From a virus, in the IMG/VR virus record IMGVR_UViG_3300009506_000023, positions 1,597 through 65,596 of that record: DNA of 64,000 bases. One strand, written 5' to 3'. Position 1 is the first letter of the stretch; each line of letters begins with the position of its first letter. Shown here piece by piece: positions 8,888 through 46,426 of this stretch. Made by a program: the position numbers and the translations under genes. Below the pieces are notes generated by a model, which was given only the letters and a program-made list of their open reading frames with translations, did not search any database and was not told where the DNA came from.

Positions 8888-9978
8888 CTACAAAATATTT
8901 ATATGATTATCTCTCTGCAGCTGTGCCTGATGTTATACAGGTACTTGATGTAACACCTACAACTATAGATGAAACATTTTCTAAATCCCAGAGAAGAATA
9001 GGTGGCGATGATTTATCTGAAATTGTATATTCTTTTTCAGATAGTCCAATATTAACTGCTACTATGAGATGGGACGTAAGGAATGCCTCAGACTCTGGGA
9101 TAATATTTGATTTTTGGTTAGACTCGAATAAAGCTAATGGTGCGGCAAATAAATTTATATGGACTCATCCTCATGATGGATATAATTATGTAGCTAGAAT
9201 GAGTAGCAATATCTCCAGAGGGATAATGATGCCAGGGTTGTTCCAGCCATCAGATTTAGCTTTGCATGTAATTGGCTATATTGAAAGTGGATATTATTTA
9301 AACTTTGATAATAAAACAGGTGGTTTTACTGCTGGGAATATTATTTATGGTGTTACATCTGAGGCATCAGCAACAATAGAAGCTGCAGATAATATTAATG
9401 ATAGACTTCTTCTAACTGATATAATTGGCACTTTTCAGGATGATGAAATAATATATGAGACTAGTTATAGCGATGAGATTTTAACTGATCCAAACATTGA
9501 ATTATGGGTTGGTGATGACCCTGATTATTGGGGAGATTATGGGTCTCCTACAGTTGTGAAGGAGTCTTCAACTGTTCAATCTGGATCATATAGTCTTAAA
9601 TTTACAGTTAATAGTGAATACGATGGTGTCCAGACTGCTCTCCCAGCAGGAGAATTAGAGCTAACTCCTGGGTGTTTTTATATTTCTTCATTTTATATAT
9701 ATGGTGATGGAACAAATGGAGTTTTGGCAAGATTTGTTATGGTAAATGGCGGTACGAGTTATGAGTATTTTAGTGATATGGGTGCTGGTGATGATTACAT
9801 ACCAGCTGCATCTTGGACACAACATTCACTTATTTTTTATAATGAGAATGGTACAAGTGGTGGCTTACAAATAATTGGTGACACAGGTGAAAATACTGGT
9901 ACACACTATGTTGACACAACATCTCTTAAAAAGATAACAAATGCTGCACTTGTCAATGGCACATTAACTAGTTTATAA
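8884..9978 (+). CDS. Tail protein, paralog of 7250..8887
   Basis: 364 aa. Paralogous N-terminus (LYDYLS..DFWL..WTH.YDGY.YV), one copy of the ~70-aa module (YYLNFDNKTGGFTAGNIIYGVTSEASATIEA..DEIIYETSYSDEIL) and a conserved C-terminus (KITNAALVNGTLTSL). Confidence 0.4.
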   Translation: MTTKYLYDYLSAAVPDVIQVLDVTPTTIDETFSKSQRRIGGDDLSEIVYSFSDSPILTATMRWDVRNASDSGIIFDFWLDSNKANGAANKFIWTHPHDGYNYVARMSSNISRGIMMPGLFQPSDLALHVIGYIESGYYLNFDNKTGGFTAGNIIYGVTSEASATIEAADNINDRLLLTDIIGTFQDDEIIYETSYSDEILTDPNIELWVGDDPDYWGDYGSPTVVKESSTVQSGSYSLKFTVNSEYDGVQTALPAGELELTPGCFYISSFYIYGDGTNGVLARFVMVNGGTSYEYFSDMGAGDDYIPAASWTQHSLIFYNENGTSGGLQIIGDTGENTGTHYVDTTSLKKITNAALVNGTLTSL

Positions 9979-31487: not shown

Positions 31488-32090
31488 TTACATTAGTATC
31501 TCAAGCTTACGAACAAACTCATCTATTGAGCTTGTAAGTAATGGCATGTTCTCAGGGCTGTATAACGTCATAGCTGGGTGAACAGAGTATGTTACCCAAC
31601 AGTTGTAATCCCTATGCCATTCAGTTGTAGCATTTATAGACATTATACCAGAGTCTTGACCTCTAAAGAAAAAGTTACCTGTATTACCAAAAGATAGTAT
31701 GAGAAATGGCTTTACTATTTCTATTTCTTTTTCAAGCCAGTGTCTACATTTATTAACATTAGTCTTTTTTGGAGTCTTTGTTTTAGATGGATAACACTTA
31801 CAGACATTAGTTACGTGGAAAAGTTCTCTTTCTAATCCTAGCATAGTCCATAATCTATCACCAGAGTCACCAATAAAGCCTATTCCTTCTCTGTCCTCAT
31901 CCCTACCAGGTGCCTCTCCGACTATCATAACATTCATTCTACCTTGGCTGGGCAATACTGGTCTACGGCACTCATCTCTTAGGTTACACTCTATACATTC
32001 TTCAGCTTTATATATTTCTGATAGGTCTGGTATAGAGCAGTCAATAAATAAATCGTGTTCATCATCCTTTAGCCCACCTAATTCACCAGA
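31488..32090 (-). other. UDG family 4-like domain at the C-terminus of DnaE
   Basis: Motif A GEAPG, motif B VHPA and a C-x2-C...C...C pattern consistent with a 4Fe-4S site. Confidence 0.55.
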
Positions 32091-35000
32091 AATTAGTTCA
32101 TCTCCGAACCAAGAAGCTTGGGTCATAAGTGCTGCCTTATCATCTGAATTTCTTGCTAAGGTTAAGACTGCCTCACCTTCGCAGTGCTCTATTGTATATT
32201 TTTTCTCGTTATAAATCTTACTACCAAATATAAGCATCTTAAAGTCGGTATCGTCTTTAAGATTTCCGTAAACACCACCCATAGAGCCGAACCCCGTAGT
32301 ATCTTTTGTTTGAGATGCTGCTTCCCTATAGCCTACCCTTAAGGACTCCATCCTTCCAAAGAAGAATCTGCTTTTATCTCCGATGTCGTAGGATTCGGAT
32401 AGGTCGAGGATATTGATTTTTTCGGATAGTTTTCTGATTAGCTTTCGGTATTTATAGAGAGGGTCATTAGATAATTCAAAGTCGAAGAATTGGGATAATT
32501 CCTCAAGTTCCTCTTCTGTTGAGTTTAACTTATCTTTAGAAGACTCGTATGCTTTTATGGAAATTAGAGTTTCTCTTACTTTTTTATTAACTTTTCTTAA
32601 AGTTTTCCGTTTTCTTAATTTCTCTTCTAAGTCTTCGGGGCTAGCGAAAACTCCTGCATTCGCTCTGCATTCGACAATCTCGTTAGAAGCTACCTCCCCT
32701 ACTCCCTTTATTTCTCGGAATGGAGCAAGTAAGCTATTATCTTTCCCTATAATCCAGACATTTGAGTCGGATTGATTAATATCAGGGAGTTCGATTTTTA
32801 TTCCAAGCCTTTTTGACTCGTTTATTAACTCGTGTTTCTTACTGGCTGGCCCATAGGATAGTAATGCTGCCATAAACTCAAGAGGATAGTAGACTTTAAG
32901 GAACATCTGCCATACTCCTATTAAAGAGTACTCGACAGCGTGGCTGAGATTAAATCCGTAAGAACCATAGTTCTTTAATTCATCGAATACTTCATCAGCT
33001 TCGGTCTCATCAAGGGTGCCTAATTCTTTACAACCCTTTATAAAGTCATCCTTAAAACTCATAAACTGTTCGACACCCTTAGACTTACTCACAACTTTTC
33101 TAATAGTATCAGCTGTTTTCCAAGGCAAACCACCTAACTCATACATCATCTTCATTATCTGCTCTTGGTAGAGTATAATCCCGTAGGTGTCTTTTGTGAT
33201 CTCTTGGAGTATTGGATGCTTTTCTGGTACTTCCTCTATGCCAAATTTTCTATCTCTGTACTTTTGACACAGCCCCGACCTCAAGGCACCTGGTCTATGG
33301 AGGGCATTTATTGCCACTACTTGGTCAAAATTCTCTCCTTGTATATCTCGACACAGCTTAATCATACTTGAAGAGTTAAATTGAAATATCCCTATTGTGT
33401 TCCCTTGAATAAATTGGTCATAAAGCTTTGGGTCATCGATATCAATCAGGTTGTAGTTGATATCCTCACCGTGTCTTTCCTTTATCAGCCTCTTCGTTTC
33501 AGCGAGTATAGTCAGCGAGTTCAAGCCAAGTATATCTAATTTCATTAGCCCCATATACTCAGCGTCTTCCTTATCCCAATTACAGACATTCACACCTTTT
33601 CTAACAACAAAGGAGGCATTTTCACCCGTTCTGAGATCGTGCTCTGAGACACACACCCCCGCAGCGTGACGCCCTGCTGCTTTTATCTGCCCTTCAAACG
33701 CCATCGCCATCTCGGTGATTTCAGGATACTTCTCTTTAAACTTTATGCCGTCCTCAAAAGTTGAGAAGGCATCCTCTATGGTAAAGTCAGCACGAAAGTC
33801 ACCGCCTGATCTCACAACTATACATTTAGCAGCCTTATCAACTTCTATTAAGGGAATATCAAAGACTCTTGAGACATCTCTCAGTGAGCCTCTACCATGC
33901 ATTTTTAGGAAAGTAGAAACCTCAATTACATTCCATTTACCGTAGGTATCGGCTAAATGTTGTTTAACTAAATCTCTTTTTCTGTCCTCGAAGTCCATGT
34001 CTATATCAGGCAAGTCGATTCTGCCTGGAGAAATAAATCTTGAGAACACAAGCTTATATTTTATAGGGTCAACATGAGTAATTCCAAGGCAATATGAGAC
34101 AAGGCTCCCACCAACAGAGCCTCTGCCTGGTCCAGACATTATATTATTCTTTTCACACCAATTTATCAGTTCCCAGACAATCAAAAAATATCTGGTAAAT
34201 TTTGGCATGATGTGGCTGAGTTCTTCTTCAATTCGATTTTCATATTTCAGATAATCTCTTCTTATCCAATCATGGTCTTTTGCTCTTTTTTCAAGCCCAT
34301 CAAAAACAAGGTTGATCAGTTGTTCATCTTCATCCATGTGGTCAATGCCTGGCATGAAGACCTTGGGCAGTTTTGGCTCTCGTTGCTGAATTTGAAAATC
34401 ACCACACAACGTTTTTACCATAGTCACGTTGGAAATTGCTTGTGTGAAAACTGATGGAAATACATCTGTGTATTTGTTGAATGCCAACTCCATTTCACCT
34501 GCTGTCTTCAAATACAATTCATCAAAGTCAAATTTCCATCGCTCTGGGTTGCTCCATTTGTCCTTGCGTTGCATGCACAGTAGGACTTCTTGGAGTTTAC
34601 TGTCTGAGGCATTTATGTAATGACAGTCGTTGGTTGCCACAAGGTTGAAGCCATAGTCTTGGGACATTTCTAGTGCCAGCAGATTTGCTGATCTGGTTCC
34701 GTCAATATCCAGTGGCATTATTTCCCCGAAAAATTCTGTCTGTTCCATAATTCGAGGGACTAGCTCAGGTGCCTCAGACATCCTTAGAAATGTCGAGGCA
34801 CAAGCAGACATGATAACTAATCCGTCTAAATGGTCTAACAAAATGCTTGGGTCGATTCTTGGTCTGTAATAAAACCCCTGAAGGTTTGCTTTAGTTAGAA
34901 TTTGTAGCAGGTTTTTCCAACCTACTTCGTTTTTAACAAGGGCAGTTATGTGATATCTTTCCTCACCCTTTTCTTTTACCATTATATCTGAGACAATGTA

Positions 35001-35201
35001 TAACTCGCAACCATGGATCGGCTTTATTCCTTCTTCATTACATGCTTGCTGGAAGCGTATTGCACCATCTACGTTAGCATGGTTGGTCAGGGCTAAGTGA
35101 GTAAATTCAAGTTCTTTGGCTCTCTTAGCCCAATCTGGAGCAGTGCCCAATCCGTCCAGTAGCGAGTATTCATTATGACAATGCAGGTGTACAAAGCCCA
35201 T
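31488..35201 (-). CDS. dnaE: DNA polymerase III alpha (DnaE-type) with a C-terminal family-4 uracil-DNA-glycosylase-like domain
   Basis: N-terminal PHP motif MGFVHLHCHNEYSLLDG. Long polymerase core with an HhH region (GVGEVASNEIVECRANAG). C-terminus reads CIECNLRDEC...MIVGEAPGRDEDREGIGFIGDSGDRLW...VHPAMTLYSPEN, giving the UDG4 GEAPG and H-P-(S/A) motifs plus 4 Cys. Confidence 0.85.
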   Translation of the reverse strand: MGFVHLHCHNEYSLLDGLGTAPDWAKRAKELEFTHLALTNHANVDGAIRFQQACNEEGIKPIHGCELYIVSDIMVKEKGEERYHITALVKNEVGWKNLLQILTKANLQGFYYRPRIDPSILLDHLDGLVIMSACASTFLRMSEAPELVPRIMEQTEFFGEIMPLDIDGTRSANLLALEMSQDYGFNLVATNDCHYINASDSKLQEVLLCMQRKDKWSNPERWKFDFDELYLKTAGEMELAFNKYTDVFPSVFTQAISNVTMVKTLCGDFQIQQREPKLPKVFMPGIDHMDEDEQLINLVFDGLEKRAKDHDWIRRDYLKYENRIEEELSHIMPKFTRYFLIVWELINWCEKNNIMSGPGRGSVGGSLVSYCLGITHVDPIKYKLVFSRFISPGRIDLPDIDMDFEDRKRDLVKQHLADTYGKWNVIEVSTFLKMHGRGSLRDVSRVFDIPLIEVDKAAKCIVVRSGGDFRADFTIEDAFSTFEDGIKFKEKYPEITEMAMAFEGQIKAAGRHAAGVCVSEHDLRTGENASFVVRKGVNVCNWDKEDAEYMGLMKLDILGLNSLTILAETKRLIKERHGEDINYNLIDIDDPKLYDQFIQGNTIGIFQFNSSSMIKLCRDIQGENFDQVVAINALHRPGALRSGLCQKYRDRKFGIEEVPEKHPILQEITKDTYGIILYQEQIMKMMYELGGLPWKTADTIRKVVSKSKGVEQFMSFKDDFIKGCKELGTLDETEADEVFDELKNYGSYGFNLSHAVEYSLIGVWQMFLKVYYPLEFMAALLSYGPASKKHELINESKRLGIKIELPDINQSDSNVWIIGKDNSLLAPFREIKGVGEVASNEIVECRANAGVFASPEDLEEKLRKRKTLRKVNKKVRETLISIKAYESSKDKLNSTEEELEELSQFFDFELSNDPLYKYRKLIRKLSEKINILDLSESYDIGDKSRFFFGRMESLRVGYREAASQTKDTTGFGSMGGVYGNLKDDTDFKMLIFGSKIYNEKKYTIEHCEGEAVLTLARNSDDKAALMTQASWFGDELISGELGGLKDDEHDLFIDCSIPDLSEIYKAEECIECNLRDECRRPVLPSQGRMNVMIVGEAPGRDEDREGIGFIGDSGDRLWTMLGLERELFHVTNVCKCYPSKTKTPKKTNVNKCRHWLEKEIEIVKPFLILSFGNTGNFFFRGQDSGIMSINATTEWHRDYNCWVTYSVHPAMTLYSPENMPLLTSSIDEFVRKLEILM
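32651..32680. repeat. Copy D of the conserved element core, lying inside the dnaE coding sequence
   Basis: CTCCTGCATTCGCTCTGCATTCGACAATCT. Its complement encodes EIVECRANAG of DnaE. Confidence 0.6.
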
Positions 35202-35407
35202 TATTCTGTCCTCAGTGCTAAAGTTTTAAACTCTTCATCTCCTTCTCTTAAATCAATTACTTGTATTAACTCTCCTGTTTCCTCATCCTCTATGAATACA
35301 TCAGATGTTTTACTTAATAACCAAACTCCATTAGGTATATGGTTTTTAAGTTTTTGTTCATCTGTCATTTTCCAGATAACTCTTTGTCTTGAAGATTCTT
35401 TTGACAT
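35201..35407 (-). CDS. Small hypothetical protein
   Basis: 68-aa ORF immediately upstream of dnaE, in an ATGA overlap. Confidence 0.3.
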   Translation of the reverse strand: MSKESSRQRVIWKMTDEQKLKNHIPNGVWLLSKTSDVFIEDEETGELIQVIDLREGDEEFKTLALRTE

Positions 35408-36326
35408 GTTTCCTCCCTATTTTGCTATTGTCCCATCCTTCCAATACTGCATAGTCTATCGTATAATTTGGATCTTGGTAAGCAATATCTTTGCCACCAT
35501 TCCTTGTATAAGACTCCCACAGTGCTTTTGGGAATTTCTTTTCTTCATATAACCACTCCCAATCGCCCCATCTTTCCTTTAAATATGCTCCGATAAAACT
35601 ATTAATCAGATTAATATTATGGAAGTCGTCAGGCTGATTGTCGTAATCCGATAGCTTTCCTGTAATATGAATAGTAGGATTATTCATTTGCTTAGCACAG
35701 AAGTAGCCAAGGGCAATCCTCTCAAATGTCATCAGTGTTTCTTCCAATCCACCAGCAAGGAAATGGGTCTGGCTTGGTGCCAACAAGAACCCATGATCTT
35801 TCATGTTTCTCAAAAAGAGCCCACGATTAGTGGCATACATATCATCTCTCGTAGGCACTATCCTTAACTTCTGAGGGGTGCCGCCAAGGAAGGACTTAGT
35901 GTTTATTACACCGCATTCTGGAAATCTTGTCATGTAATCCACTGAATGCAAATATCTTTGACCGCTTGAGAATGGATACTTATTAGTTCCTCCAACAAAT
36001 TCAAAGTCGTCATCAATAAATAAGTAGATATCACATTCTGGATACAACTCAGCACATTTCTCTCTCATCTTTATGAGTTGTATAGGCTTTGCCCAAACCC
36101 CAGAAAGAATGAACCTTGCGTCAAAGCCGTAACTCATTATATCAGCTACGGCTTTAGTGGCAAGGTTTAAGTTCCAGTCTTTCCCATTAAAGTTGATAAG
36201 CCAAGTTGTAAAGTTGGCCATCTCCACTACATGTTTCACTGACGGAATTAGCTTTTTAAAAAAAATATCAACATTATTCGTCGGACATATGATTCCAACT
36301 GTGCTTGCTAGTAATCTTTTTTTCAT
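35358..36326 (-). CDS. Putative glycosyltransferase-like protein (DxD motif)
   Basis: IYLFIDDDFEFVGG DxD-like motif. 322 aa. Confidence 0.35.
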   Translation of the reverse strand: MKKRLLASTVGIICPTNNVDIFFKKLIPSVKHVVEMANFTTWLINFNGKDWNLNLATKAVADIMSYGFDARFILSGVWAKPIQLIKMREKCAELYPECDIYLFIDDDFEFVGGTNKYPFSSGQRYLHSVDYMTRFPECGVINTKSFLGGTPQKLRIVPTRDDMYATNRGLFLRNMKDHGFLLAPSQTHFLAGGLEETLMTFERIALGYFCAKQMNNPTIHITGKLSDYDNQPDDFHNINLINSFIGAYLKERWGDWEWLYEEKKFPKALWESYTRNGGKDIAYQDPNYTIDYAVLEGWDNSKIGRKHVKRIFKTKSYLENDR

Positions 36327-37129
36327 CTATTCCCCAAATTTAAAAATGGTAAAGTAGCATTCGGTATAATTTGGACAGGCAGTTTCCCGTCCCATTTTTC
36401 AATAGCTTTTAGCTGGACATAGTCCTTCCCGCCTTGAGCATTAACAGCCTGTGCTTGAATTTTAATCTTTTCTGCTTCGGCTTTAGCAGATACAACTGTC
36501 TGTTCGGCTTCGTATTTTCTTTGCTCTAACACATTTTTAGCTTGTAGTGCTTTCTGTTCAGCTGTTACTTTAGCTTCGATAGCTGCATTAAATTCTGGAG
36601 AGAAGTTAAAGTCTGTCATAAAAACATCATCAACCATAATATGGCTTTTTGCTAGTAAACTTGAAATAGTTTCCCTTAAATCATCCTTAACTTTCTCCCT
36701 ATGTGTAATTAGCTGTTCAGCTGTATATTTAGCAGTTGTTTTCTTTATTGATTCTTCAATAGAGGGTGCTACAATTCTAACATTTGCTTCATGTCTTAAA
36801 TTCTGATATATCCAATTAACGTGTAATGGATCAAGATGATAATTTACAGCTACTTTAGTAGATACAATTTGTAAATCTTTGCTTGATGCTGATGTTCCTT
36901 TCTCTTCTTTTTGAATAGTTACATCCATTTTCTCAACATCTTTAACAATAGGTGCTATCCAATGGATACCTTCATTCAAGATAATATTCTCTACAGCACC
37001 CCACCTTAAAACAACACCTCTCTCACCAGCAGAAATCTTTACAAGCGGGTTTAAGATAAAGAAAGCAACTATGGCAAAAACGATCAAGGTTGCTGCTACA
37101 TATGTTCTTGGTCTTGTAAAATCAATCAT
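36323..37129 (-). CDS. SPFH / band-7 (prohibitin/HflC-like) membrane protein
   Basis: N-terminal TM (TYVAATLIVFAIVAFFIL) and a GERGVVLRWGAV... SPFH core, with an Ala/Glu/Gln-rich coiled C-terminus. Start chosen at MIDFTRP with RBS AAGGAGG. Confidence 0.55.
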   Translation of the reverse strand: MIDFTRPRTYVAATLIVFAIVAFFILNPLVKISAGERGVVLRWGAVENIILNEGIHWIAPIVKDVEKMDVTIQKEEKGTSASSKDLQIVSTKVAVNYHLDPLHVNWIYQNLRHEANVRIVAPSIEESIKKTTAKYTAEQLITHREKVKDDLRETISSLLAKSHIMVDDVFMTDFNFSPEFNAAIEAKVTAEQKALQAKNVLEQRKYEAEQTVVSAKAEAEKIKIQAQAVNAQGGKDYVQLKAIEKWDGKLPVQIIPNATLPFLNLGNR

Positions 37130-37259
37130 TTTCTTCCTCCTTTTTAATTTCCTTGTTTTTCTTACCAAAAAGTAATTTAGCCACAACCAATAGGATTATT
37201 AAAAAGAATAATAGTTCAAACAATATTCTCATATTAACCCCCTTTCATAAAGAATATCC

Positions 37260-37670
37260 CTACAATCCTTTTGAGGATATTGCTGAGCCAAGTTCTTTAC
37301 CCCATCTTCTGAAATTGACGACGGCTTTGTATGTCTCATGCCATTCACCTCTAAATGGTAAGCCCCTATCATCTATGTAAATATCAGCACCAATCTTAGC
37401 TTCACTCATTTTTGACTTCTTATTTCTTGGTGAGAAATTTATATAGTCGAATGGTATTTTGTGAGTCCTTAGATGCTGTTCTACTTTATCCGTCATCTTT
37501 CGGCAGGTATGGACAACTATGATAGCACCCATTTCTTTAAATTTCTCTAACGCCCACTTAGCCCCTTGTAGTGGCTCTCCGAATACTGCTGGGCCACGCC
37601 ACTCATCGTATTCAAGAATCGTTCCATCCAAGTCAACTGCTATAATCTTATCCTTTAGCCTATTTTCCAT
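37260..37670 (-). CDS. HAD-superfamily phosphatase (possible nucleotide phosphatase)
   Basis: IIAVDLDGTIL matches HAD motif I DxDGT. ADIYIDDR matches motif IV. Confidence 0.5.
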   Translation of the reverse strand: MENRLKDKIIAVDLDGTILEYDEWRGPAVFGEPLQGAKWALEKFKEMGAIIVVHTCRKMTDKVEQHLRTHKIPFDYINFSPRNKKSKMSEAKIGADIYIDDRGLPFRGEWHETYKAVVNFRRWGKELGSAISSKGL

Positions 37671-37765
37671 TTCACCTCCGCTAAACTTTTGTTATAAGAT
37701 ATATAATTGTTATCCAAAAAGGTGTGGCTATAACTGTCCCCCAAAAGACCCCTTTAATGAATTTG

Positions 37766-38776
37766 TTATTCTTCATCTCCTCTCAACCTCCTTTTCTCCA
37801 TTTCTTCTTCATAGAGTAAGGCTAAAACAAAATAGACTGCCCCATCACGAAGAGTATCTTTAATATTTTCTGAGGTCAGGCTCTCTCCTGCCTCATAATG
37901 GTTATAAGTCCTTACAAGCTTTCTGTAGATATCATGCATAAGACCTTCTTTGCCTCTTGGAGCAAATTGTATGCCGTATCTGTTAGTAGCATCTATCTTT
38001 ATCTCAAGTATCTCTTTGAGATGTTTGTTTATAGCATGTTTAGCTATGTTCTTTAATTCGTTATTAAAATGATTATTATGATCAGTTTTGTAGTTCGTAG
38101 TATCGAACCATTTATCATTAATATCTTTGAGAAGTTTTTCACTCTTTTCGTCTTTTTGTTCCTTTTTATTAAGAGGAAACTTACCAACATATTTTATGTA
38201 ATGATCATAGTCTTTTAAGAGAAGAAACTCTATCATCTTACAGTACTTTTCTCCTCTATCATCTTTACAAGATTGCGGGAAGTATTTTCTTGGATTATTC
38301 TGCCAGAAAATTGCTTCTATGCCATAATCGAGTTTATGCTTTGTAAGATACTCCCCACAGAAGAATTTAAACGAATCCTCAACAAAGTAGTTCCTGTGAG
38401 TAGGGTCTTGCCAAGCAAGGATACAGTCTTTATGAGGAACATGTATCCACATCTTCCCCGTATCCTCATAATCTGATTTATCATCTGTCCACTTCAATAC
38501 TCTCCAACACTCATTCATCAAGAATATCAGCTGTCTACCAGTTATATGCTCAAGAGTATGAGAGGTATAGATTGTATCGACAGACATGTCTGGGAAGGGT
38601 AGAGGGGTTACTGTAAAATCCATACATATATCTGGGTTTACAGCTTTAGAAATATCAATGCCTTTATACCAAGGTTGATACTTATTTCTGCCACAACCCA
38701 AGTCTAATGCTATTGGCTCCTCGAAAATCTGAAGACCTTTATGGGTCATTATTTTATATTTCTTTTTCTCAGTCAT
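37766..38776 (-). CDS. Class I SAM-dependent methyltransferase
   Basis: ALDLGCGRNKY matches motif I. YTSHTLEH follows the post-motif II pattern. Confidence 0.5.
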   Translation of the reverse strand: MTEKKKYKIMTHKGLQIFEEPIALDLGCGRNKYQPWYKGIDISKAVNPDICMDFTVTPLPFPDMSVDTIYTSHTLEHITGRQLIFLMNECWRVLKWTDDKSDYEDTGKMWIHVPHKDCILAWQDPTHRNYFVEDSFKFFCGEYLTKHKLDYGIEAIFWQNNPRKYFPQSCKDDRGEKYCKMIEFLLLKDYDHYIKYVGKFPLNKKEQKDEKSEKLLKDINDKWFDTTNYKTDHNNHFNNELKNIAKHAINKHLKEILEIKIDATNRYGIQFAPRGKEGLMHDIYRKLVRTYNHYEAGESLTSENIKDTLRDGAVYFVLALLYEEEMEKRRLRGDEE

Positions 38777-38784
38777 AACACCTC

Positions 38785-39588
38785 CTATTTAGATTGTTCT
38801 GGTTGAGGTGAATATCCTTTCTCCATAAGAGTACACCAATCTTCAAATACTTGTGACTGTTTAATATTATCTACTGGCTTAAGGTGGTCATACTTATTCT
38901 TTAATGGGCAACCAGCAAATCTTGGGAAGAGACATGTTTCCTTTACTAAACAGTTAGGAAGTAAAACTCTTTCAGCCCAATGGTGGACTTTTTGTACGAG
39001 TTTCTTCATCTCTAATGCTGCCTTTTGGAATTCACCTTGGGCTCTAACACATAATCTTGAGCACATTAGTTCGGATAGTGATCTAAGATTACAGCCAACG
39101 AGTATGTTAGTACATATATTAGTTGGAAGAACCCCTCTGGCGTCTTGGATTGATGCCCCCTTCCCAAGAAGTAGATTGTAAAATTCTTGAATATCACCCA
39201 TACAGTTGGTATACAAGGCACTTTGATACTCATCATTCTGTATGCCGTCTGGTATATAATAGGCAAACCCAGTAGCTGGGAATACTCTCATACTTTGTTG
39301 GGCAAAAGAGAACCCTACTCTATGCCTAACAAGCTGATGGGTAAATGCCCTTGTAACATCTTGTAGAAGAAAAGTGTAGTTAACAAACTCCCAAGATGAG
39401 GAGATGGTATTGAATACATACTCTAACTCCTCACCTTTTTGCCTTTCAGTCATATCCAGTATTTCTTCAAACCTTCTTGGGCTTGAGAGATGCCTTGTAT
39501 TTTTGCTGAGTATGAGTATCTCTCTAGCGTTTTTTGTATAGTCAATCAGAGTTACTCTCAATTTCACCTCCTTACATACAAGCAGCAA
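38785..39588 (-). CDS. thyX: Flavin-dependent thymidylate synthase (ThyX family)
   Basis: THQLVRHRVGFSFAQQSMRV matches the ThyX RHR-x7-S signature. Confidence 0.65.
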   Translation of the reverse strand: MLLVCKEVKLRVTLIDYTKNAREILILSKNTRHLSSPRRFEEILDMTERQKGEELEYVFNTISSSWEFVNYTFLLQDVTRAFTHQLVRHRVGFSFAQQSMRVFPATGFAYYIPDGIQNDEYQSALYTNCMGDIQEFYNLLLGKGASIQDARGVLPTNICTNILVGCNLRSLSELMCSRLCVRAQGEFQKAALEMKKLVQKVHHWAERVLLPNCLVKETCLFPRFAGCPLKNKYDHLKPVDNIKQSQVFEDWCTLMEKGYSPQPEQSK

Positions 39589-40468
39589 GAGGAAGTTCTT
39601 TCACCTCTCTTGTGCTCATTCGGTTTGCTATCTGAATAACTTTGTTGTCGTCATGCTCAAGCATGGTTTTCAATGCGATAACGTCGTCTGTTGGAGGGCA
39701 TTTATATCTTCTATCTGTATAGACACAGAAGTTGGTTATCTTTTTACCCTCTATTTTAGACACTCCTCCACCTTTCTTAGCAAGGTAAAGGCCATTCCTG
39801 CCTCGGACATAAATCTGTCCAGTTTCTTTGTACTTCTCTAGCTCCTCTTCACCTATGAATGACGATAGCAGAATAAGGGCTTTGTCTTCAGCAGCATTTC
39901 TTGCTCTTTCCCTCTCGACATATAGCCTTCTGTTTTCTACTCTCTCTTCCTCTCTACACAGCTCTCTCCACTCTTGATCTATCTTGAGTTGCATTACCTG
40001 AGCATGAGTAAGATCAGCTTTTCTAATCCAGACATTATCAACATAATACAACTGGTCTCTCTCAGCAGCTCTGTCATAGAAGTATTCTCTTGTATCATAA
40101 GTTATCCAAGTAGATGCTGATGAAGTCGGTGACCAATTACCAGAAGTTGTATATGTTGCTGTTACAGTTGAATCAGTTGCTGTTGAAGTTGTATAATATC
40201 TATAGTGAGGAACATAGGTTGTAGTAGTGCTGGAAGTATCTGCTGTCCAAGATACCACTTCTTGCTCCTTTTCATGTATCATGTGTTTTATATGTTTTTT
40301 CTTATACTCAAGGATTGGGTCAAGCATTTGAGGATTTTCGGATATTTGATGCAAATCTACATCAAAGCTGTATCGCAGCCGTTCTCCAGAAACAATGCCG
40401 TCATATACATACCTTCTGGACATTGAATCTGGAGAATCGACTACTCTGAAATTTATAACTCTTTCCAT
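39572..40468 (-). CDS. Hypothetical protein (Thr/Ser-rich middle, charged coiled C-terminus)
   Basis: 298-aa ORF. No recognised motif. Confidence 0.4.
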   Translation of the reverse strand: MERVINFRVVDSPDSMSRRYVYDGIVSGERLRYSFDVDLHQISENPQMLDPILEYKKKHIKHMIHEKEQEVVSWTADTSSTTTTYVPHYRYYTTSTATDSTVTATYTTSGNWSPTSSASTWITYDTREYFYDRAAERDQLYYVDNVWIRKADLTHAQVMQLKIDQEWRELCREEERVENRRLYVERERARNAAEDKALILLSSFIGEEELEKYKETGQIYVRGRNGLYLAKKGGGVSKIEGKKITNFCVYTDRRYKCPPTDDVIALKTMLEHDDNKVIQIANRMSTREVKELPLAACM

Positions 40469-40737
40469 TACCCACCAGCAAGTCTTGGTACAAAAAGAAG
40501 TCTGGCTGCGTGCTCAGGGAATCTGGTTATCTTTCTACCTGCCTTATTCCCTTTATCGTCCATGCGGAAGCATGTATAGCCCTTCTTAATATAGCTATCA
40601 AACTGCTTTCGAGCATCCTCAATTTGCTTATCGCTATCTGGATCCCAGAAGATTTTATCATCACCCTTTGAGCATAGTACTTCCATAACTCCTAATTTCA
40701 TCTGGCACCTCCTAGAAAATTTCAGCTTGTACATCAA
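40468..40737 (-). CDS. Hypothetical protein
   Basis: 89-aa ORF. Confidence 0.35.
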   Translation of the reverse strand: MMYKLKFSRRCQMKLGVMEVLCSKGDDKIFWDPDSDKQIEDARKQFDSYIKKGYTCFRMDDKGNKAGRKITRFPEHAARLLFVPRLAGG

Positions 40738-40930
40738 TCGTCAGAAGGTCTGCTTTAGCCAACTCTTTGATATTTTTCAGCACTGCTCTAAGTATAGCAG
40801 TTCTCTGATTTCTGGCAGAGACTGGTATTGGGCCAAGAATCTCTTTGTCTTTCTTCTCCTTGCTATACCATGTGAATATCACCTGCCATACAACTTCTTT
40901 TCCATCGTTGTCAGTTTTGTCTTTTCCCAT
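40712..40930 (-). CDS. Hypothetical protein
   Basis: 72-aa ORF. Confidence 0.35.
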   Translation of the reverse strand: MGKDKTDNDGKEVVWQVIFTWYSKEKKDKEILGPIPVSARNQRTAILRAVLKNIKELAKADLLTIDVQAEIF

Positions 40931-40942
40931 ATTATTTCTCCT

Positions 40943-41596
40943 TTACATGCTTGCCCTTTTACCATATCCGACTATTTTATCTTTTATAAAGAACCAAGAT
41001 GGTGATGTATCACCTTTAGCTTCTACAGCAGAAGGGTCTGTTAAATAAATAGGTGAAAATTTATGATTAGAAGTGTACTGTTCAACTACAGTTCTCACAG
41101 CACACTTCTTCCCACGGTTAGCGAAGTCATGCCCACTGACAATCCCGTTACGTTTAACCTTTCTTGTCCATAAAATAATATCCAGCATGAAGAAATCATA
41201 CATATGATTACCATCAATGTATACAAAATCCAGAGAGTTATCCTTCACTCTATCAAAGACAAACTCGCTGAAACCTATAAGCCATGTAGCATCATGGTGC
41301 ATCACAGCTTTAATTGCTTTCTCCATATTCTTTGAATGTAACTGGCTACCCCACCTTATTGTGCTAAATGGGTGATCCTTGTATGGATCAACGAGAAATA
41401 GCTTAAGGTCTGGTATTGTCTTAAACATATGAACAGCATTACTGCCTTTTAGGACACCGACTTCACATCCCTTCCTAAAATTAAGGGATGAGAAGAATTT
41501 ATATAAACCAATTCTGCTCATCCCTTCTACTGTTACAATGCCAACACGATTTAATCTTAAATCGTATTTTTCATCAAGAACCTTCTTTGGATTCAT
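40943..41596 (-). CDS. Class I SAM-dependent methyltransferase (TylF/MycF-like O-MT fold)
   Basis: VGVLKGSNAVHM resembles a glycine-loop region. LDFVYIDGNHMYDFFMLD is typical of that MT family. Confidence 0.5.
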   Translation of the reverse strand: MNPKKVLDEKYDLRLNRVGIVTVEGMSRIGLYKFFSSLNFRKGCEVGVLKGSNAVHMFKTIPDLKLFLVDPYKDHPFSTIRWGSQLHSKNMEKAIKAVMHHDATWLIGFSEFVFDRVKDNSLDFVYIDGNHMYDFFMLDIILWTRKVKRNGIVSGHDFANRGKKCAVRTVVEQYTSNHKFSPIYLTDPSAVEAKGDTSPSWFFIKDKIVGYGKRASM

Positions 41597-42963
41597 TTAT
41601 CCTCCCGAACCCGTTGAAATATTGGTAATCTTAAACTTCCGTCATTAGTCTCAGAGTCTGCGTGTACCTCAATAACTGAAGGCAAATCCTCAACGTAAGC
41701 TTTCCGCTGGTCATCGGACATTTTACCTGATACTCTCACCTTCTTTCCTTTATACTCGCATATAAAGGCACCGAGCATCTCTTCCATCCTTGTTCCTTTT
41801 CTGCCATACTCAAATCCAATAACAGGCAAATCAACCTCTATACCCATACCTTTCAGATATAGAGCTTTAATCCTAAACCAGTGGTCAGACCTTTCCATCT
41901 CGTGCCGATGGTCTTTTGTCTTAAGAATAATGCCTTCATTCCCGTCAGCAATTACACCTTTAGTCAAGATTCTTGCGGCATCAGCAGGGTCTGTAGTCTT
42001 GCCTACACCAACAAGATAATCCCAAAAGTCCATATGCTTCAGCCTAAAAACTTTATCGCTAGACTTAGACGCTAATTTTAAGAAATCATATTTCTCACCA
42101 GATGTTGTGTGTAAGTACCCTAACATATTGTATCTCTCTATGTATGGTAGGTCACATATAACATCCCAAACAAGAAACCGATAAATCTCAGGGTCAATAT
42201 TGTAGATTCTTCTGGCATGTTTCTGCATTGACTGGAAGTCACCATCTTTTGAGACACACTCACCATCAAATACCATAGGGTAGTCTACACCAAAACCAAA
42301 GTGGATTGTTTTAGCGAGCCTCACCAGCTCCTTATCAAATACTTTAAAGTTCTCATACGGCTTGCCATTTGTTGATAGATATTCTACCTCACCATTTCTC
42401 TGTACAGTAGCATAAGATATTCTGAACCCATCAACTTTTATAGCATAGCCAATATTGTCCAAGGTCTTTGCTAATTTGAGAAATTTTTGCCATTGCCTGT
42501 CTGGAAACGGGTTGTCACCCTTTGGCTTCATAACTTCGTAGAGAGGAAGTTCATCCTCACTAATAAAGTTCTGGGCAGTTTTTATGTTTACACCGCACCT
42601 TAAGTCTTTCTTTAAGATTTTAAGCACAACATCCCGTGTTTTATCTGAATACGAACACAAATTGGCAAGAAATTGTTTCTCTGAATCAGTAGCCCCCCTC
42701 TTATTTGACATAAGCATAAGAAAGTGGAATATTGCCCCTGGTTCTTGGAAGTCAACTCGTCTGGTTTGTTTTATGTCAAGAGTTGCTTTGGGAAGTTTGT
42801 TAATGTTGTAGTGCATGTGCGGGTGTAAAGCATAGATAACTGTATTCTTTAGCCAAGGTGTCTCTTTTAGAAGAATGCCCAGCTTTTCCAGCTTCTCATT
42901 CCTCGAAGAGATTTTTGCCAGCTCTGACAATGCGTCAGATACTCCATTCAAATTATCAATCAC
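41593..42963 (-). CDS. ATP-dependent DNA ligase
   Basis: AIKVDGFRI matches motif I K-x-DG-x-R. EGIILK matches motif IV. C-terminal LRLPIFQRVREDK is ligase-like. Confidence 0.7.
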   Translation of the reverse strand: MIDNLNGVSDALSELAKISSRNEKLEKLGILLKETPWLKNTVIYALHPHMHYNINKLPKATLDIKQTRRVDFQEPGAIFHFLMLMSNKRGATDSEKQFLANLCSYSDKTRDVVLKILKKDLRCGVNIKTAQNFISEDELPLYEVMKPKGDNPFPDRQWQKFLKLAKTLDNIGYAIKVDGFRISYATVQRNGEVEYLSTNGKPYENFKVFDKELVRLAKTIHFGFGVDYPMVFDGECVSKDGDFQSMQKHARRIYNIDPEIYRFLVWDVICDLPYIERYNMLGYLHTTSGEKYDFLKLASKSSDKVFRLKHMDFWDYLVGVGKTTDPADAARILTKGVIADGNEGIILKTKDHRHEMERSDHWFRIKALYLKGMGIEVDLPVIGFEYGRKGTRMEEMLGAFICEYKGKKVRVSGKMSDDQRKAYVEDLPSVIEVHADSETNDGSLRLPIFQRVREDK

Positions 42964-42976
42964 TCATATCACCTCC

Positions 42977-43174
42977 TTATTCAACGAATATGTGAACATC
43001 ATCAAAATTTCCTTTGTATATATTCATAACAATGTTCTTTACCTCATAGTGCTTATCTCCTATACTTATAAATTCTCCTATTTGTGGTAAGCATGGTAAC
43101 CAAGGCTCACATATTAAATCAGACTCCTCTTGACCAGATTTCTTAACCACTCTGTATATTGCTGACCTTATCAC
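42977..43174 (-). CDS. Small hypothetical protein
   Basis: 65-aa ORF. Confidence 0.3.
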   Translation of the reverse strand: MIRSAIYRVVKKSGQEESDLICEPWLPCLPQIGEFISIGDKHYEVKNIVMNIYKGNFDDVHIFVE

Positions 43175-43185
43175 ATATCACCTCC

Positions 43186-43479
43186 TTATCCTAAAGTTGT
43201 ATGGTACCTAATAAATGTAGCAAAATCTACTGCGAATTCAGGTGATTTGCCTTTGCCAAGAGCAAAACCGATAGTTATTGACCGCCAATCTTCATTATTC
43301 TCTGGATCAATTTTATCACATTTATTATGAACTTCATCTTCAAACTGGGTTGTTATTTCCTCTTTTAGAAAACAAGAAGTGCAAAGATACAGCCCATTAT
43401 CTGGGTTCTCAAAGAACTCAAACTTATCTTCTGTAGATAAGCCACATTGGTTACAATACGTCTTTCCCAAATTTATCAC
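43186..43479 (-). CDS. Zinc-ribbon protein (CxxC...CxxC)
   Basis: CNQCGL...CTSCF. Confidence 0.4.
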   Translation of the reverse strand: MINLGKTYCNQCGLSTEDKFEFFENPDNGLYLCTSCFLKEEITTQFEDEVHNKCDKIDPENNEDWRSITIGFALGKGKSPEFAVDFATFIRYHTTLG

Positions 43480-43643
43480 CTACTTATGTGGCCTTGGCAG
43501 GCAGCGTTCAATTTAAAGTGTAGAAACCACTACCTACGGGCTGAGCTTTGCCTGCCAAGTATTATGGTCTTGTGATGGCTGGGTGGTGTGTACACTCCTT
43601 CCTCGGCAGGATTCCACACAACTCGCTCTCTTACAAGATGCCA

Positions 43644-44582
43644 TCAATGATCTATATAGTATGCTTTATGCTTCACCTTTATGAGCATAATAATTTTCTT
43701 AACGTCTTCGACAACCTGATCTATCCTGAGTGACCTCCATGTAGCAAATCTACCCAAGGAGTAAATTCCAAATTCATCAGTCAAGTCCATTAAAATCCGT
43801 CTTCTTAGGTTATCATCAATTGGCTCAATCTTACCAAAATCCTGTTTGGTTATATCAATTGTACCATCAATTATATGATTTCTATTCAAGCCAAACTGCT
43901 CTATAGAATTATACATATCTGTCGCACCAAACATAGACTCAGCTATTACATCTTCATCCTGTATAGTCATTCTGTACGGTATAGTACTCCTACTATCTGT
44001 AAAGTACAATGTTTGGTGGATATTTGACCTGATGTTCAGTTTTGCTCTTGTTACAAATATTGGTCTATAATCAAATTTTACATGATACTTTAACCCACAC
44101 ATCTTTAATAAGGCTGGCATCGGCACTGTACTTATACAAATATCATAATCGTACTTTGATTCACTTTCGAGAACCAGCTTTTTATCTTTCAGTATGATAT
44201 AAACCTTCTCTTTTATGTAATTGATATCATTTGCTCTTATATTAGAAATCAGATACCTGTCAACGTCACCGAGAGATGATAGTGATCTGTTGCCTAATGA
44301 ACCGTAGGCTTTAAGGCTGTAGAGATTGTTAAGGAGCAGGTTAGGTCTATCATACAGAACGCCTTTATGGAGTATGGCCTTTTGAGCTTTTATCTTTTTA
44401 AGATCACAATTAACATACTCCTTGATAGACCGATCACGGAGCCTCATAACTGCCTTATGGCCATCAGATAGCCCCTTTTTTGGCTTATCATCAAATACTG
44501 CTATATCATTGCCAAATGTTTTAAGCATAGCACCTTCTGCTATGAGACCCGCAATCCCTGCTCCTATAACAGCAACTTTCAT
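43644..44582 (-). CDS. FAD/NAD(P)-binding Rossmann-fold protein (oxidoreductase; UDP-galactopyranose-mutase or amine-oxidase-like?)
   Basis: MKVAVIGAGIAGL is a GxGxxG dinucleotide-binding motif. C-terminal GRFATWRSLRIDQVVED. Confidence 0.45.
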   Translation of the reverse strand: MKVAVIGAGIAGLIAEGAMLKTFGNDIAVFDDKPKKGLSDGHKAVMRLRDRSIKEYVNCDLKKIKAQKAILHKGVLYDRPNLLLNNLYSLKAYGSLGNRSLSSLGDVDRYLISNIRANDINYIKEKVYIILKDKKLVLESESKYDYDICISTVPMPALLKMCGLKYHVKFDYRPIFVTRAKLNIRSNIHQTLYFTDSRSTIPYRMTIQDEDVIAESMFGATDMYNSIEQFGLNRNHIIDGTIDITKQDFGKIEPIDDNLRRRILMDLTDEFGIYSLGRFATWRSLRIDQVVEDVKKIIMLIKVKHKAYYIDH

Positions 44583-45406
44583 TATTTAGCCTCTGGAATA
44601 GTGGCACCCTTTTTATAAAAGAGCCCATTATGTTTGAATACTTGCTCACCGCCCTCAGGCAATTGGGCGTATTTTAAGACACCAGACACCCTCGTCCTGA
44701 CATTATTTGAGGACACATTAGCTTTCTCACAGGCATCTTGTATATCCTTAATCTTCAAACCTTCACCTTTAGCTTTAGACCATAAGCTATCGAAAACAGA
44801 CATGATCTGGTGTGCGTTTGTGCCTTCAGTAAAAGTGAAGTCAGGTCTTGGCCCAATTGGTTTCTTTTTCTTCTTAACCTTTTCATCAGTTTCACCCTTA
44901 CTCGAAGAGGTTTCGTCTTTACTCGAAGAGGCTGACGTGTTTTTAACAGCTGGTTCTGGCTTGGTCTTTGCTGCCTTCTTCATTTCTTTAACCTTTTTGC
45001 CCATATCAGCATCCCACTCTTGAGTTGCTAATGGGAGTTGATCCCAGTCTGCTTGGTCAAGATTATCTAATGTTTCAAACAAAAGATTCTCCAAACCCTT
45101 TAATGAAAGTTTCTCATTTACTTCAATACCCAAAACTCCTGCGTGCTCCTTTAGCACCTCAAAAGTGTTGCCGAGTTTGGTTGCTTCAGCACATGCAACA
45201 TCTTCAAGCTGGTCAATAAAATGCTTGTTGTAAAATTCTGTAACAACAGAAGGGATACCATCCAAGCTGTCTTCTACAGCCTTACGCACTTCCGCAATCA
45301 GGACATCTTTCTTAATCCCAATCACCTTGATTGCTGTCCCACAAGCATCATTAAGGTTCTTTGCCATTTCTTTAAGTTCATTGTAGTCTACATTAGCCAT
45401 TAGCAC
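44582..45406 (-). CDS. Hypothetical protein with a Lys/Ser-rich linker
   Basis: 274-aa ORF. Confidence 0.4.
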   Translation of the reverse strand: MLMANVDYNELKEMAKNLNDACGTAIKVIGIKKDVLIAEVRKAVEDSLDGIPSVVTEFYNKHFIDQLEDVACAEATKLGNTFEVLKEHAGVLGIEVNEKLSLKGLENLLFETLDNLDQADWDQLPLATQEWDADMGKKVKEMKKAAKTKPEPAVKNTSASSSKDETSSSKGETDEKVKKKKKPIGPRPDFTFTEGTNAHQIMSVFDSLWSKAKGEGLKIKDIQDACEKANVSSNNVRTRVSGVLKYAQLPEGGEQVFKHNGLFYKKGATIPEAK

Positions 45407-45451
45407 TCCTCCTTTTCAATGTAAAAAATTTACCATAAAAATCTGGCGTTC

Positions 45452-46009
45452 TTAAAGATACTTTGAGACTAAAAATTTTAAATTGTCGATGTCTATTTTA
45501 AAAAAATCCTCCAACATATGTTTTGGGTAGGATATGCTACCACCTAAGTTCTTAAAATTATTGCCTATTCTCTTCGATCTCATGTGTCTACGAGCCACGA
45601 ATAAAAGGTCTTTGGGGACACCCTCCACAACCATGGTAGCAAAGTCATAGGATACCTCAGACAGTGCTATTATTGCCTGAATAGCCATAGCAGTGCTCTC
45701 TGGGCTGAGCTTTTTGCTTTTAATATTGAAGTCTTCTAAACATGCCTTCTCATGCTTTCTCTTTTTATAAATGTTCTCATTTCGGTAGAGTGTCTTATAT
45801 TTGTTCTCGACTGCAACATACAGGTATGTAGTAAATTCACACTCGACATCATCTCTCTTTTTTAGACACTCCAAATATGTTACCCACCCTTCTGATATCA
45901 AATCATCAAGGTCATAGATAGTGTTTCTTGAGAATTTATATATGAACTGATGGGCTAATTTGACAATGATAGCTTCGCATTTTTTGAATTCTTCAGTCAT
46001 ATTCGCCAC
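45452..46009 (-). CDS. Putative RNA polymerase sigma factor-like protein (T4 gp55-like size)
   Basis: 185 aa. IYDLDDLISEGWVTYLECLKKRD resembles sigma region 2. Tentative. Confidence 0.3.
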   Translation of the reverse strand: MANMTEEFKKCEAIIVKLAHQFIYKFSRNTIYDLDDLISEGWVTYLECLKKRDDVECEFTTYLYVAVENKYKTLYRNENIYKKRKHEKACLEDFNIKSKKLSPESTAMAIQAIIALSEVSYDFATMVVEGVPKDLLFVARRHMRSKRIGNNFKNLGGSISYPKHMLEDFFKIDIDNLKFLVSKYL

Positions 46010-46426
46010 CTATACCAAAATTAGCAGTCCATCTTTAACAGCTTGTTCCTCTGTCAGCCCTTGCCTCTTTAAAAACTTTTTAATAGTGTCTTCTGTTCCA
46101 CCTTTTCTGTCACTTGCTACACAAGCAATTAGGACATCAGAGTTATCAGCAATATCTGTATTTCTTATGAAACCAGCAGCCTTACCATGCTTATCCCACT
46201 GGGCAGGGAATACTGTTATTGGTACACCGTAAGCATCAGAGAGAATCTCAGCAAATTGGTCACCGCCTTGAGGGCAACCACCGCTTACAATCTCTAAAGT
46301 GAATTCACCCTCAAGCAAGGACTCCTCTGCCTTTTCCCATACCTCAAGGAATGCTTTGCGAATTGCTCCATAGTCATCTTTTTTGTTCCTTCTTCTTGAT
46401 CCAACTATCCCTATTTTCATAGGCAC
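46010..46426 (-). CDS. SLOG / DUF2493-like Rossmann protein (LOG/DprA-like fold)
   Basis: MKIGIVGSRR...VSGGCPQGGDQFAE pattern. Confidence 0.4.
   Translation of the reverse strand: MPMKIGIVGSRRRNKKDDYGAIRKAFLEVWEKAEESLLEGEFTLEIVSGGCPQGGDQFAEILSDAYGVPITVFPAQWDKHGKAAGFIRNTDIADNSDVLIACVASDRKGGTEDTIKKFLKRQGLTEEQAVKDGLLILV

Follow-up and report, generated by a model that had tools for sequence, protein, structure and literature searches.

A conserved ThyX–DnaE gene block in an uncultured phage, possibly a replisome-linked module for pyrimidine-nucleotide supply and uracil control

We analysed a 64,000-nucleotide stretch from an uncultured phage (IMG/VR virus record IMGVR_UViG_3300009506_000023, positions 1,597 to 65,596; the whole stretch is hereafter called the window), and in it a minus-strand cluster of enzyme genes built around a divergent flavin-dependent thymidylate synthase, ThyX, and a fusion of DnaE, the alpha subunit of DNA polymerase III (Pol III), to a uracil-DNA glycosylase (UDG). 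An initial annotation of the window had read these enzymes as a candidate pathway for DNA base or sugar modification. The open reading frames (ORFs) that it named all lie on the minus strand at the coordinates listed below, and its gene-by-gene guesses at the enzymes proved essentially right in profile searches and structure prediction. Replication genes are interleaved with these enzymes, as it had said, namely the DnaE-UDG gene (31488-35201) and a DNA ligase gene (41593-42963). When the 11-kb region was compared by Megablast with 50,697 phage records, there was no match, so among those records the phage appears to have no close cultured relative.

Results

A gene block conserved in order beside the polymerase

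Proteins were searched against Pfam, NCBIfam, PHROG and PDB, and two family-less proteins were settled by structure prediction. Domain scans covered all minus-strand ORFs of at least 100 amino acids (aa) and, within 35-48 kb, smaller ORFs as well. The genes that matter most for what follows are, in the direction of transcription:

43644..44582, minus strand: flavin adenine dinucleotide (FAD) flavoprotein resembling UDP-galactopyranose mutase (UGM), 312 aa, PHROG 4828; steady partner of the variant ThyX
38785..39588, minus strand: variant ThyX, Pfam Thy1 at 123.6 bits; probable true start a GTG at 39567
37766..38776, minus strand: S-adenosylmethionine (SAM) methyltransferase with a putative divergent DUF1599/Nmad1 domain, alpha-helical; Methyltransf_11 at E 8e-7, invariant QDPTH
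37260..37670, minus strand: small capless HAD phosphatase of the BT0820 type; NCBIfam NF046079 at E 6.6e-10, PHROG 1238 at E 1.5e-24
35358..36326, minus strand: glycosyltransferase of the GT-A fold, with an invariant DDD; clade-specific and always directly upstream of DnaE
31488..35201, minus strand: DnaE (Pol III alpha)-UDG fusion, the anchor of the block, lying beyond the cluster as first delimited

Minus-strand genes run from ~23.3 kb to 64 kb. Across the ORF array, all of it on the minus strand, intergenic gaps range from -50 to +164 nucleotides, a packing consistent with a single transcription unit.

Relatives were gathered through the methyltransferase, GT-A and flavoprotein families, and the window proteins were then scored against their loci by tblastn. 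Relatives are named by locus labels (L003, L004, which is P0024, L005, L007, L008, L009, L010, L013, L021 and L025), and those counted as informative are the ten metagenomic loci whose contigs extend 4 kb or more beyond the GT-A gene on its upstream side. Every one of the 10 informative relatives has the order ThyX, methyltransferase-Nmad1, HAD, GT-A, DnaE-UDG, and the ordered block persists at protein identities down to 36-48%. The methyltransferase gene lies directly downstream of ThyX, or with only a small ORF or homing endonuclease gene between them, in nine relatives, and HAD follows the methyltransferase in all relatives. Upstream of the block stands the UGM-like gene, in all four relatives whose contigs extend there, and likewise a sigma factor gene wherever the contig of a relative extends that far.

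Because the five genes are co-conserved in order among relatives, their clustering appears to be beyond chance. The conserved unit is five enzymes plus the polymerase, and the rest of the set first listed are accessory passengers. The proposal that the listed genes form one pathway is thus borne out in part: ThyX, methyltransferase-Nmad1, HAD and GT-A are ordered beside the polymerase, with the UGM-like gene upstream, whereas two of the seven genes, those for a second methyltransferase (Methyltransf_24) and a SLOG-like protein, are accessory, and so are the interleaved SPFH and ligase genes; most relatives lack them.

A divergent ThyX subtype

The Thy1 (PF02511) score of the window ThyX compares with a gathering score of 24.8 bits, and its score against the TIGR02170 equivalog model is a marginal miss (87.6 bits against a cut-off of 87.9). 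Relatives begin at MKVTL, which makes the GTG at 39567 the probable true start. Active-site residues were read from HMMER alignments to solved ThyX structures (Thermotoga maritima and Mycobacterium tuberculosis) and from a MAFFT alignment, in which the central region of the T. maritima sequence (native residues ~43-203) was verified against the PDB alignment.

Like the canonical enzymes (T. maritima TM0449 and M. tuberculosis Rv2754c), the window protein belongs to the Thy1 family and retains R78/H79/R80, S88, R90, R147 and R174 (T. maritima numbering); the equivalents of the dUMP-binding Arg147 and Arg174 align. The initial annotation had suggested looking for hydroxymethylase-like changes in the active site, and the active site is indeed altered. 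His53 and Tyr91 are both replaced, the motif RHRxxSxxxxSxR reads RHRvGFSFAQQSMR, with all motif residues there and one extra residue separating RHR from the first Ser, and the C-terminus is extended by a cysteine-rich stretch with a four-cysteine motif; in these respects, and in scoring just under the TIGR02170 cut-off, the protein is unlike canonical ThyX. His53 is a conserved residue that stacks on folate and reduced flavin, and Tyr91 is strictly conserved, its mutation causing a 1000-fold loss of rate (PMC11940539). Both are missing likewise in 11 of 11 aligned phage homologues of this ThyX subtype, and the same substitutions are found in ThyX of Serratia phage Hera, Pantoea phage Kyle, Xanthomonas phage Carpasina and Cronobacter phage Ss1.

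The four conserved cysteines of the extension (RLC...C-x6-C...CP, encoded within 38785-39100) are kept in the clade and in ThyX of PB1-like phages. They are present in the Hera, Kyle and Carpasina proteins and are missing all together in Ss1 and T. maritima ThyX, an all-or-none pattern that suggests a Zn or Fe-S site. By these sequence features the window ThyX is a divergent and distinct subtype.

A UGM-like flavoprotein pairs with this ThyX in cultured phages

The best structural match of the protein encoded at 43644-44582 is UDP-galactopyranose mutase (Glf/UGM), and the predicted structure has an FAD Rossmann fold and the overall UGM fold. Arginine motifs FYR and GRF are invariant, while the Tyr of the WxY motif is not conserved. 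With 312 aa against 365-510 aa in UGM, part of the substrate-binding architecture is missing, and neither the three-domain architecture of UGM nor its complete substrate-binding Arg/Tyr set was found in the window protein.

The UGM-like protein matches 360 phage records (Pseudomonas 290, Escherichia 27, Serratia 9, Rhizobium 8, Xanthomonas 6, and others). The ThyX subtype matches 349 records at a coverage of at least 80%, in the same groups and with near-identical counts; at this coverage the two proteins, the ThyX subtype and the UGM-like protein, give 355 and 349 records, and the genus counts agree. Across the four cultured genomes that were inspected, their genes are direct neighbours or have one to two small ORFs between them, and they lie just upstream of genes for the Pol III epsilon subunit and/or DnaE. 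The order in Pantoea phage Kyle is UGM-like, ThyX, MazG, HAD_PNKP, short-chain dehydrogenase/reductase (SDR), epsilon, DnaE, and that in Cronobacter phage Ss1 is UGM-like, ThyX, a fusion of a HAD-like protein to DUF3310, DnaE; the Hera and Carpasina loci resemble these arrangements. The SDR was confirmed by Pfam in Kyle and Hera, and in Carpasina it is given by the record annotation. No glycosyltransferase is annotated near the UGM-like gene in the cultured-phage loci examined. The literature on UGM together with phage and Pol III, or on Pbunavirus together with ThyX, yielded nothing on function.

PB1-like and related phages (Pbunavirus, Myosmarvirus, Kylevirus, Carpasinavirus and Ss1) thus share with the window the ThyX subtype, with the four cysteines in most, a UGM-like flavoprotein at 28-31% identity, adjacency to DnaE, and MazG-like and HAD genes or fusions after ThyX. 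Unlike their modules, that of the window has a UDG fused to DnaE, an added GT-A, and a MazG-like domain of the Nmad1 type fused to a SAM methyltransferase, and neither an SDR nor a separate epsilon subunit was seen in its block.

The initial annotation had counted the ThyX and the FAD protein towards modification; neither is peculiar to this phage, and the two form a fixed pair beside DnaE in ~350 cultured phages that lack GT-A. In those phages, unlike UGM, the flavoprotein accompanies ThyX and not a glycosyltransferase, and the pair points to a role in nucleotide supply and not in sugar metabolism. A role in making UDP-galactofuranose is weakened because the flavoprotein is tied to ThyX and the polymerase in distant phages that have no glycosyltransferase. 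We therefore rejected as the primary explanation a canonical UGM that feeds UDP-galactofuranose to GT-A, the flavoprotein being truncated as well. Possibly the UGM-like protein compensates for the lost His53/Tyr91 pair.

The methyltransferase-Nmad1 protein, the HAD protein and their fusions

At its C-terminal end, about one third of the methyltransferase appears to be made up of a divergent DUF1599 (PF07659), "nucleotide modification associated domain 1" (Nmad1). In the window protein this domain scores 14.6 bits against a gathering score of 25 (E 0.045); it was matched in 7 of 26 members of the methyltransferase family, with a best E of 4.6e-4. The family comprises 32 proteins, all metagenomic. 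The nearest multidomain relatives of the methyltransferase domain are glycosyltransferase fusions; of 53 scanned, five have Glycos_transf_2, several other glycosyltransferase families also being represented, and NCBIfam gave a weak match to the mycofactocin oligosaccharide methyltransferase. Literature on DUF1599 or the "nucleotide modification associated domain" offered nothing on function.

Two relatives carry fusions across the block. The methyltransferase domain is fused to a complete ThyX domain in P0024 (L004), and an Nmad1-like domain is fused to HAD, with the methyltransferase domain absent, in L013 (10854-11663); a search of IMG/VR for further Nmad1-HAD fusions returned the source contig only. 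These fusions support a functional link among the methyltransferase, Nmad1, HAD and ThyX. At a more distant locus of 30% GC content, L009 (103-1969), a gene for a dimeric all-alpha dUTPase (PF08761) precedes the methyltransferase-Nmad1 gene, and ThyX is 5 kb off, past a split DnaE. This dUTPase appears to be another tie of the methyltransferase to dUTP/dUMP metabolism.

In the HAD protein, the VDLDGT (DxDGT) and IDDR motifs align to PDB 2obb (BT0820), its closest match; its NCBIfam score is 39.5 against an equivalog cut-off of 165. A role as a PNKP-like 3'-phosphatase of DNA ends, partnering the ligase, was considered and rejected: the ligase is not conserved, and it is with Nmad1-type domains that HAD is found, as a neighbour or in a fusion.

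The GT-A protein and the DnaE-UDG fusion

The protein encoded beside DnaE has no sequence match in Pfam, NCBIfam, PHROG or PDB, where sequence and profile searches gave noise, and its identity was settled by fold search only. The predicted structure has a Rossmann-like GT-A fold with a DxD motif, and the best fold-search matches are GT2 enzymes acting on polysaccharides, teichoic acid and polyprenol. No membrane segment is predicted (AF2 secondary structure). Distant homologues occur in Rhizobium phage RHph_Y65 and Streptococcus phage GXN1, where they stand beside a nucleotide-sugar epimerase, other glycosyltransferases and a 5'-nucleotidase. A scan of genome contigs with the GT-A profile found no relative, and hence no clue to a host or prophage.

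The DnaE gene encodes the Pfam domains PHP, DNA_pol3_alpha, finger and HHH_6, followed by a C-terminal UDG domain (E 1e-23). The UDG domain is family-4-like, with GEAPG and HPA motifs and a CxxC...C...CKC pattern of the Fe-S type, all motifs being intact, and the fusion is conserved in the clade. A UDG fused to the polymerase fits ordinary thymine DNA. In relatives the fused gene is interrupted by inteins in L003 (13385-18196) and split around a DUF559 endonuclease in L007 (5949-10857).

Accessory and neighbouring genes

The remaining genes of the cluster and its surroundings are:

45452..46009, minus strand: sigma-70/ECF-like sigma factor at the head of the array; Sigma70_r2 at E 3e-7, TIGR02937 at E 7e-8
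46010..46426, minus strand: SLOG/YspA-like (DprA-like Rossmannoid) protein, PHROG 289 at E 4e-17; accessory
41593..42963, minus strand: ATP-dependent DNA ligase, Pfam DNA_ligase_A_M and OB_2, PHROG 114 at E 1e-53; variably present
40943..41596, minus strand: Methyltransf_24 SAM methyltransferase, Pfam E 3e-11; accessory
36323..37186, minus strand: SPFH/Band-7 membrane protein between HAD and GT-A, Pfam Band_7 at E 1e-28; accessory

The sigma factor and a conserved 274-aa protein after it are both kept in L003, L005 and L013. The SLOG/YspA-like protein, which is under the cut-off for Pfam YAcAr (PF10686; 22.1 bits against 28.2), recurs among relatives in L003 only, and the ligase in L021 and L025 only. 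No Methyltransf_24 gene was found at any related locus; its PDB search was empty, and its nearest phage matches are an 'O-methyltransferase' of a Lokiarchaeota virus and cyanophage genes. The SPFH protein had no tblastn match in relatives, and an unscanned 309-aa ORF lies in the equivalent position in L010. A 298-aa ORF of the window is not conserved among relatives.

Genes for NUMOD3 homing endonucleases lie between ThyX and the methyltransferase in L007 (1069-1851) and L008 (1029-1997 and 3459-4241), and in Cronobacter phage Ss1 an HNH endonuclease gene lies between the HAD-like gene and an exonuclease gene that precedes DnaE; the block appears to be a target for mobile endonucleases. The module of some relatives includes an adenylosuccinate-synthetase-like gene (PF00709; L003, 5717-6940) or a shorter ORF in which a PurA-like motif can be recognised (L010, 1076-1843), each followed by an ORF of ~495 aa. 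Z-DNA (2-aminoadenine) of the PurZ type was considered and set aside, the PurZ-like genes being found in L003 and L010 and none in the window. Elsewhere in the window, the sign of the GC skew flips at ~23 kb, where the transcription strand switches, and the presumed structural arm holds two very large plus-strand ORFs, 2162-7222 (1686 aa) and 9978-15446 (1822 aa).

Restriction-site depletion and known modification enzymes

Several palindromes are missing from the window: CCGG, GCGC, CGCG, TTCGAA and CTCGAG all have a count of 0, against Markov expectations of 41, 30, 14, 14 and 10, respectively. CTAG, TGCA, GGCC and GATC are depleted 2- to 4-fold, and 4-base palindromes have a mean z of -6.3 against +0.4 for other tetramers. 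Depletion differs among relatives, with CGCG at 0 in L007 and L010 and GGCC, GCGC and CGCG at 0 in L009, which suggests host-specific restriction avoidance. Such purging implies that restriction can reach the DNA at sites containing C only and also at sites containing T, which argues against a protective genome-wide base replacement; most likely, the virion DNA carries no global hypermodification.

Among the ORFs scanned, Pfam revealed no hydroxymethylase or hydroxylase of the ThyA type and no TET/JBP dioxygenase, and neither a deoxynucleoside monophosphate (dNMP) kinase nor 5-HMUDK was detected, short or unrecognisable ORFs being left over. To our knowledge, the known phage pathways of pyrimidine hypermodification all have a dNMP kinase and take either a dioxygenase or a homologue of ThyA as their starting enzyme. 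We know of no report of modified bases in the cultured phages that bear the ThyX/UGM pair, although modification reports were not specifically searched.

The systems compared with the window were the phage pathways for glycosylated pyrimidines, that is, glucosyl-5-hydroxymethylcytosine in T4, arabinosyl-5-hydroxycytosine in RB69 and DLP3, and hexosyl-5-hydroxycytosine in RL38J1, which uses a phage UGM. Shared with them is the combination, within one phage, of a thymidylate-synthase-family enzyme, a nucleoside triphosphate (NTP) pyrophosphatase-like domain, one or more glycosyltransferases and a UGM-type flavoprotein (PMC13326640). In another phage family, UGM and glycosyltransferases have been proposed (2026) to make DNA with glycosylated 5-hydroxycytosine, in a pathway in which a thymidylate-synthase-family enzyme has switched to flavin/O2 chemistry (PMC13326640).

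Discussion

We give an even chance to the reading in which the region is a middle-gene replication and nucleotide-metabolism operon of a DnaE-type phage, with a core, physically linked to the polymerase, that supplies pyrimidine nucleotides and controls uracil. A nucleotide-supply core is favoured because the cultured DnaE phages Kyle, Ss1, Hera and Carpasina carry the same functional classes beside ThyX and DnaE. The variant ThyX, which retains the residues that bind dUMP and FAD, would turn dUMP into dTMP. It would be partnered by the dedicated UGM-like flavoprotein, a partnership suggested by co-occurrence, which may act as a reductant or in flavin handling and so offset the lost His53 and Tyr91. 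The MazG-superfamily-like Nmad1 domain and the small HAD would process nucleotides, presumably from dUTP or dCTP to dNMP and pyrophosphate, after which the pyrophosphate or a nucleotide monophosphate would be hydrolysed. Incorporated uracil would be cleared by the UDG carried on DnaE. To this block the clade would have added a sugar-type SAM methyltransferase domain, on Nmad1, and GT-A.

Several observations weigh against the nucleotide-supply reading. With His53 replaced by Ile and Tyr91 by Val or Phe, the window ThyX lacks both residues, and ordinary dTMP synthesis is therefore not assured. Nmad1 is without an obvious EExxE metal motif, so that its pyrophosphohydrolase activity is an assumption, and each of the fusions was seen in one contig. 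The avoidance of restriction sites is indirect, and partial or sequence-specific modification would be compatible with it. Finally, a housekeeping view gives no role to the methyltransferase domain or to GT-A, yet both are as conserved as ThyX.

In a second account, GT-A, the methyltransferase domain and perhaps HAD would act on a target other than DNA, such as a glycan or lipid carrier of the host envelope, a protein of the host or the phage, or a small molecule resembling a nucleotide sugar, and would stand in the replication operon for the timing of their expression only; ThyX and the UGM-like protein would provide an ordinary supply of dTMP. Taken as a whole this account is unlikely, though it ranks next after nucleotide supply. 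The GT2 enzymes that GT-A resembles most act on polysaccharides, teichoic acid and polyprenol; most relatives of the methyltransferase domain occur in fusions with glycosyltransferases of the polysaccharide type, and the weak mycofactocin match is to an oligosaccharide methyltransferase. A membrane protein, SPFH, is also encoded between HAD and GT-A, with the 309-aa ORF at the equivalent place in L010. However, the methyltransferase domain is joined to Nmad1 and, in P0024, to ThyX, and Nmad1 is joined to HAD in L013, fusions that imply nucleotide chemistry; GT-A has no predicted membrane segment, and its gene is invariably immediately upstream of DnaE.

The modification pathway of the initial annotation fares less well. 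In its ThyX-based form, the variant ThyX and the UGM-like protein would make a C5-hydroxymethyl or C5-hydroxy pyrimidine nucleotide and not dTMP, Nmad1 and HAD would purge the canonical nucleotide, and after incorporation by DnaE, GT-A would add a sugar that the methyltransferase would O-methylate. We regard this whole chain as improbable. In its favour are the loss of the folate-stacking His53 and of Tyr91, the four-cysteine motif, the fusion of methyltransferase to ThyX, and the strict co-conservation of GT-A and the methyltransferase inside a polymerase operon; the nearest relatives of the methyltransferase are fused to glycosyltransferases, and the GT-A homologues of large phages stand beside a nucleotide-sugar epimerase, glycosyltransferases and a 5'-nucleotidase. 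5-Hydroxymethyl-dUMP has been trapped from the ThyX reaction, which makes the chemistry plausible. A precedent is the proposed building of glycosylated 5-hydroxycytosine DNA by a phage UGM and glycosyltransferases, with a thymidylate-synthase-family enzyme that has turned to flavin/O2 chemistry (PMC13326640). Against it, the same ThyX/UGM-like pair occurs in ~350 cultured phages that have neither GT-A nor the methyltransferase, no kinase was found among the ORFs scanned that would raise a modified dNMP to the triphosphate, C-only and T-containing restriction sites are both strongly purged, and the UDG fused to DnaE fits ordinary T-DNA. What stands of the modification proposal is a conserved, nucleotide-centred toolkit with its fusions and its UGM/glycosyltransferase precedent; the hydroxymethylase, kinase or dioxygenase it would call for was not found, and the purged sites speak against it. 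Overall, the initial interpretation is partly supported. The version in which ThyX and the UGM-like protein make a C5-modified pyrimidine nucleotide, from which the GT-A and O-methyltransferase of the clade build a methyl-glycosylated DNA base, is a long shot; if true, no earlier route of hypermodification would have had ThyX in place of ThyA as its foundation.

Least probable, and disfavoured, is the absence of any pathway, with unrelated early or middle genes as chance neighbours in a compact genome: phage genomes are dense, and Methyltransf_24, SLOG, SPFH and ligase are variable passengers, but the order is kept in every informative relative, two independent domain fusions join the genes, and distant cultured phages, too, have these functional classes next to ThyX and DnaE.

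Whichever of these accounts holds, the locus brings into view a large and uncharacterised ThyX subtype that does without two residues held to be essential and is always accompanied by a shortened UGM-like flavoprotein. As the pair occurs in ~350 cultured phages, including therapeutic PB1-like Pseudomonas phages, it is testable in culture, and if the two proteins do cooperate they would represent a new two-component form of flavin-dependent thymidylate synthesis. The methyltransferase-Nmad1, methyltransferase-ThyX and Nmad1-HAD fusions give the orphan Nmad1 domain a concrete biochemical neighbourhood. If the enzymes are housekeeping ones, the region would be an ordinary nucleotide-metabolism operon with unusual additions; if GT-A and the methyltransferase act on DNA or nucleotides, it would represent a ThyX-based branch of phage DNA modification.

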